Shown here: one piece after another, positions 22,014-27,755 of the stretch
Numbering within the stretch: the first letter of the stretch is position 1
How the letters are laid out: every line of letters starts with the position of its first letter
From: a virus
Length of the DNA: 64,000 nucleotides
IMG/VR virus record: IMGVR_UViG_3300044991_002272
Direction: 5' to 3' (one strand)
The notes under the pieces: generated by a model
What the model was told of the DNA's origin: nothing
What the model saw: only the letters and a program-made list of their open reading frames with translations
Databases searched by the model: none
Made by a program: the position numbers and the translations under genes

Positions 22014-22072
22014 ACTGGATTGACAGCGTCGCAAATTCAGCTACATTGCTGGGCAAACAAGGGACTGTGAGT

Positions 22073-22792
22073 ATGGATCGTTTGGCACAGATGACTCAAA
22101 AGGTGCACAGCCTTTTTGAGCTTGCTGATCAGCTATATGGCTTGAATTTGCGGCAGACTGCGATTCGCTTTGACCTTCGAGGGATGAAGGCTGGAAAGGC
22201 CTGCTGCCGGATTTGCCAGCGCACGTTTACTCGTAAGTATTCTGTGCATTTCAACCAACAGGTTATCCAAGGGTCTGAGTTTGATGATGTGCTACAAAAT
22301 GCCACAGCACATGAGGTGGCGCACATCGTGTGTTTCATGAACCCCAGTTTGGGCCGGGATCATGACCAGGGTTGGAAGAGGGTTTGTGTAGCACTGGGAG
22401 GTAATGGCAGCATCTACCACAGCTACAAAACCACATACTCTGGCGGAAACTACCACTACACTACCTCTACTGGGCAAGAAGTGGTGATCTCGGCTCATAG
22501 ACACACAAAGGTGCAGAAGGGCCATAAGTACCGATTCAAGGCCAAAGGGTGGATTGATCGGAGTTGCAATTGGCGTAAACAAATTATTCCAGGGATTGAT
22601 GTCTCTGGAAATACAACCACCAAGATCCCTTCTCAGAAGGATGGATCTTATGCGGCTAGGATCCGGGAATGGATCCGCACACATAAGCCCCAAGGTGCGT
22701 CTCAATCTGACATTATTCAAAAGGCTGTTGCTGCTGGTATGCGACTGAGTTCTGCCCGGTCAGCAGTTTTGACCTTTTGGGATAAGGTGTAA
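22073..22792 (+). CDS. SprT-like zinc metalloprotease
   Basis: HEVAH, HDQGWK; promoter TTGACA-N16-TACATT with GCAAACAAGG leader. Confidence 0.85.
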   Translation: MDRLAQMTQKVHSLFELADQLYGLNLRQTAIRFDLRGMKAGKACCRICQRTFTRKYSVHFNQQVIQGSEFDDVLQNATAHEVAHIVCFMNPSLGRDHDQGWKRVCVALGGNGSIYHSYKTTYSGGNYHYTTSTGQEVVISAHRHTKVQKGHKYRFKAKGWIDRSCNWRKQIIPGIDVSGNTTTKIPSQKDGSYAARIREWIRTHKPQGASQSDIIQKAVAAGMRLSSARSAVLTFWDKV

Positions 22793-23605
22793 TTACCTCT
22801 GAGGCAAAGTACAAGCTGCTTGCCGAGCCTCACTTACAGATCGAACAGGAAGTAAGAAGGGTTTAGCAGTTTTATCGCCTGGCATGGGAATTTCATATCC
22901 CACAAGAGATTCCAGTTCAACTACTGTGACCTGGAAGCTTTTGAGTTCTGTAGAGATGTTGGGTTGATTGGGAAAAAGAAAAGCCCACGCCTCGCCAGTG
23001 CGATGGCTTACAACAACCTTCCAGAGGCTGTTGGGCACTACTACTGCATTGCGGCCAATGGTTTTGGCAGTCATCACATCATAAATGTTTCCGCTGTAAA
23101 CGGTATAGGTATCATTAGTCTGTTGGGTCCATCCTCTGATACCAGTCTCTAGAGTTTTCCACGCACCACGGTTTACATTAGCCAATTGCGGGCTCATATT
23201 GCTGAGAATGAAGCTCTCACGCTCAGCAGTAACACTCCACAACATATCGGCTGAATTCACCATGTGACCAGTGTCATATCCTGATTGTCGATAGTCGCCC
23301 AATTCAGCTCGCTCACCACGAGGCAAGCTTTGGTCTGGAGAGAATGCATCACTTCTCTTTCCACACCCCATGGCCTTTTCAGGCGTAATCGTATAGACAG
23401 TCCATAATGGTATCTTTGCCCTATTGTCGTGCAATAACGCATAAGCCATGCGACAGATGGGTTGGCCAGTGGGTAAATTGGCAGTGGGAAACCCCCACGG
23501 CGCTTCTGATTGACAAGCCTCCATAGGCCTTGGCGGCGTTTGTTGAGCATAGGCATCACTAAGTGAGAATATAAGAGCTGAGATAGCAAAAAATAATTTG
23601 ATCAT
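22793..23605 (-). CDS. Secreted sugar-nonspecific DNA/RNA endonuclease (NucA/Endonuclease_NS)
   Basis: Signal peptide ending AYA; YDTGHM, NMSPQ, NRGAW. Confidence 0.88.
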   Translation of the reverse strand: MIKLFFAISALIFSLSDAYAQQTPPRPMEACQSEAPWGFPTANLPTGQPICRMAYALLHDNRAKIPLWTVYTITPEKAMGCGKRSDAFSPDQSLPRGERAELGDYRQSGYDTGHMVNSADMLWSVTAERESFILSNMSPQLANVNRGAWKTLETGIRGWTQQTNDTYTVYSGNIYDVMTAKTIGRNAVVVPNSLWKVVVSHRTGEAWAFLFPNQPNISTELKSFQVTVVELESLVGYEIPMPGDKTAKPFLLPVRSVSEARQAACTLPQR

Positions 23606-23663: not shown

Positions 23664-23975
23664 ATGAACAAAGTTTTGATGTTTGATAACCCAAATGATT
23701 TTTTGACCCATTTGAAGAACTCATTAGAGAAGGAAAACACACTGTCCCAGACTGAATTGATCAGCTTACTAAAAGGCAGTGTGAGTGCTTTAGAGCAGCT
23801 TTGGACAAGTCAAAATATCTTGGTCACCAAAATGGCAGAAACTGTTGACTGTCTCAACAGGCATGATGAAAGCTGGGGCCATAAGCTAGCCCAGCTCTAC
23901 ACTGTGTTGGAATGTGGCCAAGTATCTCCAGATGAGATGGAACAGATCTTGCGGGATGAAGTCTGTGGGAGTTAG
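23664..23975 (+). CDS. Hypothetical protein
   Basis: 103-aa ORF. Confidence 0.55.
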   Translation: MNKVLMFDNPNDFLTHLKNSLEKENTLSQTELISLLKGSVSALEQLWTSQNILVTKMAETVDCLNRHDESWGHKLAQLYTVLECGQVSPDEMEQILRDEVCGS

Positions 23976-24424
23976 AGCGCAATATCATTCATACCCACAG
24001 ACCTAAGGCGTATGATATTGTTAAGTTGAAAACCCTTGATCTCCATTGACTTGATTACACCAAGATACTTGTTGCGAATCAATGCCACCTCATTCACTAG
24101 ACTCATCATTGTTTGAACATCAGCCTCGCCATCAATGTATTTTTCAATGGCGCGGTCACTCAATTCTCTGTTGTAGCGTTCGAGATAGCGACGATAAAAG
24201 TCGCTTCTCATTTTGTCCACTTGGTTGTTGAGATGTTTCAACACAGCCTCAATCTCTTGCAGTTGACTGAAACGCCAACTTACCTGACCTGGCAGCTCTT
24301 GACTGTTTTTTTCAAGGCTGCCAAAAACCTTGCACTCTTTTTGAGCAACCTCGAGCTCATTGTTGTAGTAGTCCACCATATCAGGAATTTGCGATAGGTC
24401 GTTTTTTACTCTGTTAAACCACAT
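23972..24424 (-). CDS. uvsY: UvsY-like recombination mediator
   Basis: Helical; AIEKYIDGE...KGFQLNNIIRLRSVGM matches the UvsY C-terminus. Confidence 0.8.
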   Translation of the reverse strand: MWFNRVKNDLSQIPDMVDYYNNELEVAQKECKVFGSLEKNSQELPGQVSWRFSQLQEIEAVLKHLNNQVDKMRSDFYRRYLERYNRELSDRAIEKYIDGEADVQTMMSLVNEVALIRNKYLGVIKSMEIKGFQLNNIIRLRSVGMNDIAL

Positions 24425-24435
24425 GACAATTGATA

Positions 24436-24654
24436 CTAGCAGTCGTCGTCTACGTCAACATCTCCATAGAGTTCATCAAGGGCAGAATCAAGGCTGTCAT
24501 CTGCACCACGCAGTGAGTCAAGATCATGAATCTCCACATCATTTTCTTCAAAAACACTGATGAATTCCAGTGCCACATCGTCTCGCTTGCCAGCTGGAAT
24601 CAAGTCCTTGACTGTTTCCCAAAGCTCTGCAATTAGTTTTGCATCAATTTCCAT
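24436..24654 (-). CDS. Small acidic hypothetical protein
   Basis: GGAG RBS; TAAATA upstream. Confidence 0.65.
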   Translation of the reverse strand: MEIDAKLIAELWETVKDLIPAGKRDDVALEFISVFEENDVEIHDLDSLRGADDSLDSALDELYGDVDVDDDC

Positions 24655-24693
24655 TAGTTTGATCTCCACAAAAAATCTGGGGTTATTTAAAGG

Positions 24694-25539
24694 TTACTTG
24701 GGTACAAATTGGCCGCAACTTGCATATACGTCTTGACCAACTTTCGGAATAATCTTACAGGGCATATATTGCTGGATTTGTGCAGCTATGTCATCCACCC
24801 GTAGACTTTCTTCACCCTGTTGACTGCTATAGGGATTGTATCTCACAATGTTGAACTCACTGTGAAAACCATAAGTTTGAATCAAGTTCATCATCTGTGC
24901 AATATCTTCTTCACTGTCGTTTTCACCGCGTATAAATGCTGAATGAAACTTAACTATCTTTTTGGAAACTTTTTGATATTCCTTCAGATTATCCAGGGCA
25001 CGCTCTACTGGCATCGCTGCTGGTAACCATTTGTTTCTAAATGAAGAATTTACTGAATAAATGCTAAAATAAATTGTGGGCCCAATAATAGGAAACACAT
25101 CACACAAGCTTTTTTTCAAAGTCACTGGCATAATAGTGCTGATATTGAACTTGGGTCGTAGAGAATGATCCTGTGCCCTATTGCCCAGTCGCCAAAGAAG
25201 TTCTGCGCCAGTGTTGATAATTGTGGGATTGGCAAGTGGCTCTCCCCGGGCCATGAAATTCAAGTGCACTGTTTGCGCAGGAGTGTCTTTTTCATAATGA
25301 GACAATACAGTTTCAAACTGACTGACAAAATTACTTTGGTCCAGATTCGAAAATTGTGTTTGTTTGGTTGCAGTGAGATGACACATTTGGCATCCACGGT
25401 TACAGCCAGTTTGTGAACTGAGATACGCGATGAAATAGTCAGCTTGACGTCTTACATAACGCGACTCAATAAATCCTGTCAGCTGTTGCTCAACAAAATT
25501 TACACTCGCATCCAGTTGCGAGTTGATCTGTTGTAACAT
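24694..25539 (-). CDS. RlmN/Cfr-family radical SAM enzyme, lacking the N-terminal domain and the C118-equivalent
   Basis: SSQTGCNRGCQMC, FMARGEP, GEND, DVYASCGQF. Confidence 0.85.
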   Translation of the reverse strand: MLQQINSQLDASVNFVEQQLTGFIESRYVRRQADYFIAYLSSQTGCNRGCQMCHLTATKQTQFSNLDQSNFVSQFETVLSHYEKDTPAQTVHLNFMARGEPLANPTIINTGAELLWRLGNRAQDHSLRPKFNISTIMPVTLKKSLCDVFPIIGPTIYFSIYSVNSSFRNKWLPAAMPVERALDNLKEYQKVSKKIVKFHSAFIRGENDSEEDIAQMMNLIQTYGFHSEFNIVRYNPYSSQQGEESLRVDDIAAQIQQYMPCKIIPKVGQDVYASCGQFVPK

Positions 25540-25556
25540 ACGTTGAAACTTTCTGG

Positions 25557-25748
25557 TTAACGGGATTTGGGCGAAGGTAGTTTTTTTTGACCAAAGTTAC
25601 AATGTTTTTGTACCACTGGGTCATACTTCTTCAGACGCAACTTTTCACTAGACTTTGCACCTTTTGTAGTAACATGCGTCATGTATTTGGTTGGTGTATC
25701 ATGGTCTTGATTTACCAACATTACAATTACGGTTGCTGCTTTTGCCAT
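25557..25748 (-). CDS. rpmG: 50S ribosomal protein bL33 homologue (Zn-free type)
   Basis: 63 aa, MAK start, KLRLKKYDPVVQKH signature; AGGAG RBS; TATAAT upstream. Confidence 0.85.
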   Translation of the reverse strand: MAKAATVIVMLVNQDHDTPTKYMTHVTTKGAKSSEKLRLKKYDPVVQKHCNFGQKKLPSPKSR

Positions 25749-25847: not shown

Positions 25848-26942
25848 TTATGATAGATCTTCTTCAGGCTCTTGAACTTCAATATCTTCTAACACAGGGG
25901 CAATTTTGCTTAGCTTCTGATGGAACTCATTCATTATTTGATCAAGACATCCATCTTCATTGCGATCCCAAGCTTTTTCAAACTGCTTGATCTGTGTGCC
26001 ATCCAAACGAGTGTAACACCACTTGTTTCCTTCTTTGACTAACAACCCTTTCTGAACAAACAGGTCATACAAGCCACTGTAGGGGTCCATGCCTCGGTCG
26101 TATGGGATTTTAACCTCAACAGTCTCAAAGGGTTTGTTATATCGCGTCTTCATTACACGACATTGAGCACGGATACCTTTGACGTCCGTTGTCTTGTTGC
26201 CCATCTCATCTTCCTTGAGCTTGAGCTTGCGCATAGCCAACACAATGCTGCTGGCGTAGATGGGGCCTTGCCCACCACTAATGACATCATCTGGATTGAA
26301 CATGTCTTGGCTTGCATAACTGTGGTTTGTGCAAATCATGCCGATATCATATTCACCAAACATGTTAACACAATTTCGCACAAGCGCAGCAAGTGCACGC
26401 GGCTTGCGCCCCATATCACCCTTGAGCTCACCAGCCTCAAATTGATTGACATCAGTTGGAGTTAGGAGCATGCCTAAACTGTCAATCACAAAGAGCACGC
26501 GAGGGCGTTCTTCCTCACTCACGCTGTTGTAACGAGCTTTGTAGTCCTTCATGAAATCTGAGATCAACTTGGCAACATCATCAATCATTGCCAAGTTTGC
26601 CTTCAAAAGCTTGTCCTCAGATGTATCTACATCTAGCGCCTTTAGCCATTTTTCATCTAGTGCATTCTCACTGTCGATCAACACCACAAACACATCTTTT
26701 TTCTGTGCATTAGAGGTTAAGTTTCCTGCTGCTAAAAAGCTCTTGCCACTGCCACTTTGTCCAGCCAGCATTGTTACTTTGCCTAGCGGGATGCCACCGT
26801 CACGGAATCTACCAGAGATAGCATAATTGAGTGCATAGTTGCCTGTTGAGATCCATACCTTGGGATCGCGAAAGCCAACTGATAGTCCAGGAATGCTCTT
26901 GGCAATATCTTTTCTAAATCGGGATAAATCTAAAGGTTTCAT
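25848..26942 (-). CDS. uvsX: UvsX/RecA recombinase
   Basis: STGNYALN, GQSGSGKS, VIDSLG, TNHSY, SGGQG. Confidence 0.95.
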   Translation of the reverse strand: MKPLDLSRFRKDIAKSIPGLSVGFRDPKVWISTGNYALNYAISGRFRDGGIPLGKVTMLAGQSGSGKSFLAAGNLTSNAQKKDVFVVLIDSENALDEKWLKALDVDTSEDKLLKANLAMIDDVAKLISDFMKDYKARYNSVSEEERPRVLFVIDSLGMLLTPTDVNQFEAGELKGDMGRKPRALAALVRNCVNMFGEYDIGMICTNHSYASQDMFNPDDVISGGQGPIYASSIVLAMRKLKLKEDEMGNKTTDVKGIRAQCRVMKTRYNKPFETVEVKIPYDRGMDPYSGLYDLFVQKGLLVKEGNKWCYTRLDGTQIKQFEKAWDRNEDGCLDQIMNEFHQKLSKIAPVLEDIEVQEPEEDLS

Positions 26943-27614
26943 CTATTTTTCCATCTTCTTTTTGTTTAGGTATGCTTGTCGACGAGCCTCTGACCAAAGT
27001 TTTCCTTTATGCGTTTGACTTATCAAGAGTTTACTCTCCTCTGTGTGTTTATAGATATGTCCTTCATGGCCTTTACGAATATTTTCAAGTGCTTGCCCTG
27101 TTCGTTTTGAACCCTTATAGGGGTTCGGCACTCCTTTTTTAGCTGCACTTATATTCTTACCACGTTCGGCTAGTTCTTCAGGAGTCATATTCACTTTGCA
27201 GCCTCTTTTTTGAGATGCAATTTTTTCAACATGTTCTGGACTCTTCTTTTTTCCTTTTGCTGCTAGACTCATTTTCTGTCTTGTTACTGTATTGTGAATC
27301 AACCCATAATTGGATTCTCCACCATCTGTCAGATTATGCAAGACACCAGTGCCGTTATCAAGACGACCCCAAAGCCTAATCAACTTCCTTTCCATGATAA
27401 GTGACCATAGTTCTGATAGATTACAAGCAACTATGACTATTCTCCATTTTTCTTTGGGAACTGGAACTCTATGTCTGCCATGCCAGGCTCTGTCGCCCTT
27501 GCCTTTACCAATATAATACGGTGTTCCTGCCTTACCATTTGCCGAATCTTTGATTCTCAAATAAGCGTAAACGTAATAATCTTCAGACAGAATTGTAGTG
27601 GGATAAATATCCAT
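26943..27614 (-). CDS. GIY-YIG homing endonuclease with NUMOD3 repeats
   Basis: YYVYAY...YYIGKG...R; NLTDGGE; KKSPEH and HTEESK NUMOD3-like motifs; true start ATG 27614. Confidence 0.9.
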
Positions 27615-27685
27615 GCTGTTGCTCCTCATAAGCGATAGAGCTGGTAGGTGTTGCAAGCACCGTGACCAGCAGCATGTATTTATCC
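27601..27685 (-). ncRNA. Structured cis-element A (three-way junction) over the promoter, RBS and start codon of the GIY-YIG gene
   Basis: GGATAAATA/TATTTATCC, CATGCT/AGCATG, GCTGGT/ACCAGC, CAC bulge, GGTG/CACC, GCT/AGC; covaries with element B. Confidence 0.75.
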
Positions 27686-27755
27686 ACTCCACAAATTATC
27701 ATACCGTCATAGAGAGTTCAAGTAAGGTGACATTGTCACCTTACTCTCAAGTTGA

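Follow-up and report, generated by a model that had tools for sequence, protein, structure and literature searches.

Two class A radical S-adenosylmethionine (SAM) methylases, RlmN (YfgB of Escherichia coli, the 23S rRNA m2A2503 and tRNA m2A37 synthase; TIGR00048; PDB 3RFA, 4PL1 and 5HR6/5HR7) and Cfr (the 23S rRNA m8A2503 methyltransferase; TIGR04432 and NF000424; PDB 9P0P), share a textbook mechanism in which two cysteine residues are indispensable. Here we describe a gene from a 64,000-nucleotide stretch of viral DNA (IMG/VR record IMGVR_UViG_3300044991_002272; the whole stretch is referred to below as the window) whose product resembles both enzymes in sequence and fold and has tyrosine at the position of one of these cysteines. 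In RlmN, SAM first methylates C355, and a 5'-deoxyadenosyl radical then takes a hydrogen from the methyl-Cys; the methylene radical adds to C2 of the adenine, and Cys118 deprotonates and resolves the covalent adduct (PMC5130265, PMC13266988). The C118A variant of RlmN makes no product and stays cross-linked to RNA (PMC5130265). A carboxylate has been proposed as a base analogous to Cys118 in a class C methylase (PMC13266988), and a non-thiol base is therefore chemically conceivable.

Relation of the Tyr-type enzyme to RlmN and Cfr

The 281-residue protein encoded on the minus strand of the window is a member of the Pfam Radical_SAM family (PF04055; 31.5 bits against a gathering threshold of 29.5). 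Its top NCBIfam match is the RlmN model TIGR00048, but the score of 64.6 bits stays below the cut-off of 290, as do the scores against a second RlmN model, NF008396 (42.8 bits versus 633), and against the Cfr models TIGR04432, NF000424 and NF011024 (52–60 bits versus 468–550). PHROG 27142, on the other hand, was matched end to end (1.4e-89; residues 4–279 on profile positions 8–299 of 300). Cfr provided the top single-sequence match in the PDB (3.6e-11) and the top profile match (1.5e-16). An AlphaFold2 (AF2) model built on 41 relatives had a predicted local distance difference test score (pLDDT) of 88.4 and a predicted template modelling score (pTM) of 0.87, and its best Foldseek matches were 6FZ6, E. 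coli RlmN (3RFA, 4PL1, 5HR6/5HR7; TM 0.74–0.82 on the query) and Cfr 9P0P; far lower scores were obtained for pyruvate formate-lyase activase and other radical-SAM folds. By sequence and fold alike, the nearest characterised relatives of the protein are RlmN and Cfr. The gene and its key elements are as follows.

24694–25539 (including the stop codon), minus strand: 281-residue Tyr-type RlmN/Cfr-like radical-SAM enzyme (open reading frame, ORF; Pfam, NCBIfam and PHROG 27142; AF2 model)
25423–25425, minus strand: codon TAT of Tyr39, at the position of RlmN Cys118 (sequence and alignment)
25381–25404, minus strand: C46-x3-C50-x2-C53, the motif of the radical-SAM [4Fe-4S] cluster (invariant in relatives)
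25237–25254, minus strand: M96-A-R-G-E-P101, equivalent to RlmN MGMGEP, the SAM-binding GGE-type motif, with Arg98 invariant (alignment)
24715–24717, minus strand: codon TGC of Cys275 within VGQDVYASCGQF, equivalent to RlmN Cys355, the methyl carrier in GDDIDAACGQL (alignment)

Residue equivalences were taken from a multiple alignment with E. coli RlmN (MG1655 record), Cfr(B) and two other RlmNs:

E25: RlmN E105
Y39: RlmN C118
C46/C50/C53: RlmN C125/C129/C132
H54: RlmN S133
M96-A-R-G-E-P101: RlmN M176-G-M-G-E-P181
S159-I-Y161-S: RlmN S233-L-H235-A
H199: RlmN E278
R233-Y-N235: RlmN P310-W-N312
G268-x-D270-x-x-A-S-C275-G: RlmN G348-x-D350-x-x-A-A-C355-G

The retained catalytic elements in this alignment comprise E25, C46/50/53, G99-E100, S134-T135, N235 (N312 of RlmN) and the G-x-D-x-x-A-S/A-C-G loop; the motif of this loop, around C275, is the signature of the class A methyl-carrier cysteine. 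The window enzyme has in common with RlmN the TIM-barrel core, CX3CX2C, E105, the GGE-type motif and the mobile C-terminal loop of the methyl-carrier Cys, and with Cfr the same motifs, including the AACGQ loop. It differs from RlmN in being only ~19–20% identical, with a score far under the family cut-off, and in a set of substitutions (Cys118 to Tyr, His235 to Tyr, G177-M178 to A-R, E278 to H and P310-W311 to R-Y). Cfr has Cys opposite Y39, and its other differences are as for RlmN. The match to RlmN starts at about model position 79 (RlmN residue about 80–104) in a protein of 281 residues versus 384 in RlmN; the N-terminal accessory (RNA-recognition) domain, residues ~1–80 in RlmN and Cfr, is therefore absent. 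Because the protein fails on the family score, the N-terminal domain and C118 alike, it should not be annotated as RlmN, even though its mode of action is most likely that of a class A methylase. Nothing in the analysis suggests a role in antibiotic resistance. Taken as a whole, the protein is an intact representative of a large and uncharacterised clade within the RlmN/Cfr (class A radical-SAM methylase) superfamily; most carriers of this clade are jumbo phages and megaplasmids, joined by some bacteria.

Conservation of Tyr39 and distribution of the family

A word-indexed search found 1884 relatives, and 116 full-length sequences among the best 120 (56–98% identity) were aligned. When 1.84 billion cluster representatives were searched exhaustively with phmmer, 312 clusters were obtained at E <= 1e-30, and 144 full-length representatives of these (38–59% identity) were aligned. 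Tyr39 is present in all 116 of the best relatives and in all 144 phmmer representatives, and a count of the motif placed Tyr seven residues before the first cluster Cys in 262 of 262 family sequences. Because every one of these 262 relatives carries it, Tyr39 is neither a chance nor a sequencing feature, nor a local defect. The only invariant cysteines in the 116-sequence set are C46, C50, C53 and C275, the last of which is Cys in 143 of the 144 representatives.

Possible substitutes for the missing thiol were considered and rejected. Other cysteines of the enzyme are not conserved among the 144 relatives: C146 is Cys in four of them, C261 in eight and position 38 in 37. The product of orf77, the gene 3' of the enzyme gene, ends in Cys in the window and might have donated a thiol in trans, but this terminal Cys is not conserved. 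A paralogue of the Cys type was likewise dismissed as a thiol source, as five jumbo genomes with a Tyr-type gene contained none. As for fused or extended forms, the few longer relatives have N-terminal extensions without any Pfam domain and probably reflect mis-called starts. In one 372-residue relative (P0022), the C-terminus of the enzyme is fused to a small downstream protein. This small protein belongs to a family of ~55–110-residue proteins, absent from the window, that is encoded just 3' of the enzyme gene in several related phages (L010, L011 and L013–L017) and could be a partner.

A preliminary description of the window, made from its sequence alone, had already placed Tyr at the RlmN Cys118 position and noted the intact methyl-carrier Cys, the reading MARGEP for MGMGEP, the absence of the N-terminal domain and an upstream gene for ribosomal protein bL33; it had also stated that C118 is needed to release the RNA adduct. 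The alignments, the family cut-offs (Pfam and TIGR01023 for bL33) and the behaviour of C118A RlmN agree with it on each of these points. It had further pointed to conservation of the Tyr among homologues and to a substitute Cys as matters to look into, and the alignments described above found the Tyr in every sequence and no conserved candidate for the latter.

Clustered at 50% identity, the Tyr-type clade falls into more than 300 groups. The family itself corresponds to PHROG 27142 (‘Fe-S-cluster redox domain-containing’), with annotations that range from ‘hypothetical’ to ‘RlmN’, and the pipelines of the Joint Genome Institute (JGI) label many relatives RlmN. Relatives with 39–43% identity are found in cultured phages, namely the Pseudomonas phages 201phi2-1, Psa21, Phabio, D6, RVTF4 and Viktualia, the Caulobacter phages CcrColossus and CcrPW, and Brevundimonas jumbo phages. 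In IMG/VR there are 80 loci with Tyr-type relatives, mainly on contigs of 50–465 kb. Megaplasmids of Pseudomonas (including pMPPla107), Acidiphilium, Acetobacter and Rhizobium carry the gene as well, and so do bacterial genomes (72 loci), many of these on chromosomes of Planctomycetota and Myxococcota. Only hypothetical genes adjoin it on the megaplasmids pMPPla107 and those of Acidiphilium, and no partner gene is common to the 80 viral loci beyond synteny at the level of lineages. The anti-phage defence models of PADLOC gave no match for the enzyme.

In 35 of the 72 bacterial loci, mostly from Planctomycetota and Myxococcota (within L085–L140; e.g. L115:1786–4989 and L090:473–5026), the Tyr-type gene divergently adjoins a conserved block that encodes an AbiEii-family nucleotidyltransferase, a ~530-residue leucine-rich repeat (LRR) protein whose N-domain is of the TIGR02996 type, a sulfotransferase-like protein and, in some cases, a sulfatase. 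This block may be a mobile island common to the two phyla.

The closest comparison within phages is a short Cys-type family (type of gp170 of Tunturiibacter phage Tunturi_5, n=108), which resembles the Tyr family in being phage-borne, about 290–340 residues long and without the N-terminal domain, and in having His133 (after the third cluster Cys) and His278 (RlmN numbering). In contrast to the Tyr family, its members keep C118 (103 of 108) and His235 (107 of 108); they have 26% identity to the window protein and form a separate clade. Since this sister family keeps both residues, the changes of C118 to Tyr and of H235 to Tyr are a coupled signature of the Tyr clade. In a quick maximum-likelihood (ML) tree of 71 sequences, the Tyr family, the short Cys family and RlmN/Cfr are split by three branches, each with a value of 99 in the Shimodaira–Hasegawa-like approximate likelihood ratio test (SH-aLRT), and the stem of the Tyr family is long (1.11 substitutions per site). 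As judged from these sequences, the replacement of C118 by Tyr marks a clade, is coupled to the replacement of H235 by Tyr and to changes in other lining residues, and is under strong purifying selection. One of the two cysteines essential in RlmN/Cfr has thus been exchanged for an invariant Tyr in a clade that pipelines routinely mislabel ‘RlmN’. The window itself contributes its bL33 neighbour and a comparison with the short, Cys-keeping family.

Four members of the short Cys-type family (P0304, P0309, P0351 and P0374) have Val at the C118 position and no Cys nearby, and the C118-type Cys has therefore been lost more than once among phage RlmN-like enzymes. A third short RlmN-like kind is encoded by Klebsiella phage 05F01 (L157, 38631–39560); it has Val at C118, a Cys three residues on (LSCSHGC) and a C-terminal SSCGMF loop, and its gene is flanked by one annotated as ADP-ribosyltransferase and by an anaerobic ribonucleotide reductase gene.

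Predicted chemistry and substrate

The fixation of Tyr across a large clade argues for a changed chemistry and/or substrate rather than for decay, in line with one of the options raised in the preliminary description. Tentatively, and with a probability of about 0.45, we see the enzyme as a variant class A radical-SAM methylase that turns over with Tyr39 in place of Cys118 and probably acts on tRNA or rRNA. The chemistry and substrate that we infer would be as follows. A first SAM would methylate C275, and the 5'-deoxyadenosyl radical of a second SAM would remove a hydrogen from methyl-Cys275. The thiomethylene radical would then add to a nucleobase at an sp2 carbon, the most plausible target being an adenine in tRNA or 23S rRNA, and Tyr39, possibly together with Tyr161, would act as a general base and/or a proton-coupled electron relay that frees the product, with no Cys–Cys disulfide.

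Hints at the substrate come from gene neighbourhoods. tRNA genes lie within 6 kb of the enzyme gene in 22 of the 80 viral loci; after clustering at 70% identity, a tRNA gene is present in the locus for 12 of 37 clusters and within 1.5 kb for eight of the 37. The 118 tRNAs near the enzyme gene are all on its strand. In two loci (L019 and L028) the enzyme gene sits inside a tRNA array, and in Psa21 (seven tRNAs) and a related 317-kb phage (10 tRNAs) it lies directly next to the one tRNA cluster that the genome contains. Downstream of the enzyme gene, CcrColossus encodes a tRNA nucleotidyltransferase (at 1.7 kb) and RVTF4 an RNA ligase (at 2 kb). In tRNA-rich jumbo genomes, roughly 3–20% of positions would be within 1.5 kb of a tRNA by chance (an estimate from five genomes). 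The proximity to tRNA genes, together with homology to an enzyme that modifies tRNA and rRNA, is only suggestive of a tRNA or rRNA substrate.

Among the tRNA genes near the enzyme gene, one or two (L010/L017, 3871–4026; L012, 4150–4224) have a CUA anticodon, i.e. are of the amber-suppressor type (‘Pyl’ in ARAGORN), and are located 0.7–2 kb upstream of the enzyme gene. Their presence in a 452-kb phage and its relative may point to TAG read-through or recoding in that phage.

Several observations weigh against a turnover methylase of this kind. RlmN without Cys118 is trapped on its RNA, so that rescue by Tyr is conjectural; the RNA-recognition domain that RlmN and Cfr possess is missing; the enrichment of tRNA genes near the enzyme gene is about twofold over chance and stems from few lineages, and the window contains no tRNA genes. 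Literature searches on phage RlmN and on Tyr-type RlmN gave nothing relevant, and no publications on the Tyr-type family were found.

In spore-photoproduct lyase, Cys and Tyr serve as hydrogen donor and radical relay, and by analogy the enzyme might be no methylase at all, with Cys275 as a hydrogen-atom donor and Tyr39/Tyr161 as a radical relay in a radical-SAM reaction on DNA, a protein or a small molecule. Such a role would suit the remodelled lining of the active site (Y39, Y157/Y158, Y161, H199, R98 and R233), the absence of the RNA-binding N-domain and the position of the gene between the recombination/repair genes uvsX and uvsY in the phage lineage of the window. However, the C275 loop is almost the same as the loop that holds the methyl carrier in RlmN/Cfr, a feature specific to the class A enzymes, and the placement between uvsX and uvsY is confined to one lineage, whereas elsewhere tRNA genes are the recurring neighbours; we consider this alternative unlikely. 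Another view, that the gene is an ordinary auxiliary copy of RlmN engaged in canonical m2A2503/m2A37 synthesis, could appeal to the common fold and to the name that JGI pipelines give to many relatives, but is extremely improbable given the low TIGR00048 score, the lack of both the N-terminal domain and Cys118, and the position in a separate clade on a long stem.

The fate of C118A RlmN (PMC5130265) also invites the idea, put forward in the preliminary description, of a single-turnover cross-linker that, lacking Cys118, stays on host tRNA or 23S rRNA through Cys275-CH2 as a stoichiometric poison or tag. It agrees with the absence of an alternative conserved Cys from the family and with the AbiEii-family nucleotidyltransferase, a member of a toxin-type family, that adjoins the gene in Planctomycetota and Myxococcota. 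Mere loss at C118, however, would allow Ala, Ser or Val, whereas the Tyr is invariant (262/262) and co-varies with the change of H235 to Tyr; moreover, the family persists on bacterial chromosomes and megaplasmids without a recognisable antidote, and PADLOC has no model for the enzyme. A suicide cross-linker is therefore disfavoured, and we regard it as very unlikely. It is still more doubtful that Tyr-type enzymes are natural RNA cross-linkers whose biological product is the conjugate of Cys275-CH2 with a specific adenine of tRNA or 23S rRNA, and there is equally little chance that such a conjugate would, for example, disable or mark the host translation apparatus with phage bL33 supplied alongside.

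If the Tyr-type enzyme is active, it would offer either a second way to complete radical C-methylation or a new reaction, and would point to an unrecognised modification of nucleic acids, possibly of tRNA from phage or host, that is made while jumbo phages infect their hosts. With homologues in the cultured phages Psa21, 201phi2-1, Phabio and CcrColossus, this question is directly testable.

The bL33 gene and the surrounding locus

On the minus strand, the genes around the enzyme are arranged in the order uvsX, terminator-like hairpin, 63-residue ORF, 17-nucleotide spacer, 281-residue ORF, orf77 and uvsY:

25848–26942, minus strand: UvsX/RecA-like recombinase, the upstream edge of the syntenic block (70% identity to UvsX of Sinorhizobium phage Phosso)
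25801–25825, minus strand: intrinsic-terminator-like hairpin between uvsX and the L33 gene, with an 11-bp stem and a T-run (sequence)
25557–25748 (including the stop codon), minus strand: 63-residue zinc-free phage bL33 (Pfam, NCBIfam; AGGAG 8 nucleotides before the ATG)
24436–24669, minus strand: orf77, a small acidic protein 3' of the enzyme gene, kept in 14 related loci
23972–24424, minus strand: UvsY-like recombination mediator, the downstream edge of the syntenic block (PHROG 231, 2.6e-16; Pfam UvsY weak)

The window comes from a jumbo myovirus of the Phosso/Atu_ph07/GAP32 group, since UvsX is also 60–62% identical to its counterparts in Agrobacterium phage Atu_ph07, Cronobacter phage GAP32, Xanthomonas phages and several ~350-kb Escherichia phages.

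The bL33 ORF starts at the ATG at 25748 behind the AGGAG site, not at an upstream TTG. Its product passes the cut-offs of Pfam Ribosomal_L33 (PF00471; 29.2 versus 25 bits) and TIGR01023 (28.4 versus 23.95 bits) and remains below that of the subfamily model NF001860 (27.8 versus 50 bits). bL33 contacts E-site tRNA (PMC6375957), and phage-encoded bL33 is known from earlier work, in which most of the viruses concerned were aquatic (Mizuno et al., 2019; PMC6375957). The window bL33 is of the same kind and so adds one more phage-encoded ribosomal protein without being new in kind. It differs from those reported in belonging to a small lineage of nine clusters at 90% identity (59–100% identity, with a common KKLPSPK tail), for which no match was found among 50,697 deposited phage records.

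The stop codon of bL33 is 17 nucleotides before the start codon of the enzyme gene, and we found no terminator-like hairpins between the L33 gene, the enzyme gene and orf77. The two genes are probably co-transcribed in the window and its closest relatives. In the closest phages, wherever the gene context is visible, the L33 gene adjoins the enzyme gene: upstream in the window and in L001–L004, L166, L167 and L168, and downstream in L006–L008 and L018. In L009, L011 and L013–L016 the same synteny of uvsX, enzyme gene, orf77 and uvsY is seen, but no L33 gene is present there. In a complete 452-kb relative (G002), more than 130 kb separate the enzyme gene from an L33 gene that belongs to the same lineage. 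There is no L33 gene within 6 kb of the enzyme gene in 72 of the 80 viral loci, and none at all in three of the four enzyme-carrying jumbo genomes that are at least 90% complete. The interval between uvsX and uvsY is an insertion hot spot, with a NUMOD3 homing-endonuclease-like gene in the window and other inserts in relatives.

These data bear on the proposal in the preliminary description that the enzyme may, with bL33, make up a module for ribosome remodelling. In a dedicated module of this kind, for example, modification of 23S rRNA or E-site tRNA would be coupled to exchange of L33, or L33 itself would be the substrate. The short gap, with a terminator upstream of L33 and none between the two genes, the adjacency kept in two gene orders and the contact of bL33 with E-site tRNA all speak for it. 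However, all loci with adjacent genes belong to one phage lineage with conserved synteny, the interval is prone to insertions, and L33 is distant in the 452-kb relative and missing from the vicinity in most viral loci. Of the proposed module and a linkage with rpmG, what stands is the adjacency, with probable co-transcription, in the closest relatives; the linkage does not extend to the four jumbo genomes that are at least 90% complete, and a dedicated module is quite unlikely. The pairing appears to be confined to one phage lineage and not to be obligate. The phage bL33 would then be a separate accessory gene of a known kind, transcribed jointly with the enzyme gene in the lineage of the window only.

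Two further features of the region deserve mention. Between uvsX and the next large gene is a 249-residue ORF (26943–27692, minus strand) whose product, with a GIY...YIG-like N-terminus and a NUMOD3 motif (27.5 bits), is probably a homing endonuclease; relatives have other inserts at this spot, and in L007 and L008 uvsX is seemingly split by a 472-residue ORF. On the other side of the block, at 22046–23605, a gene for an SprT-like metalloprotease (plus strand, 248 residues) and one for a DNA/RNA non-specific endonuclease (minus strand, 270 residues; 1.7e-46) abut tail to tail, and this pair is retained in related phage loci.

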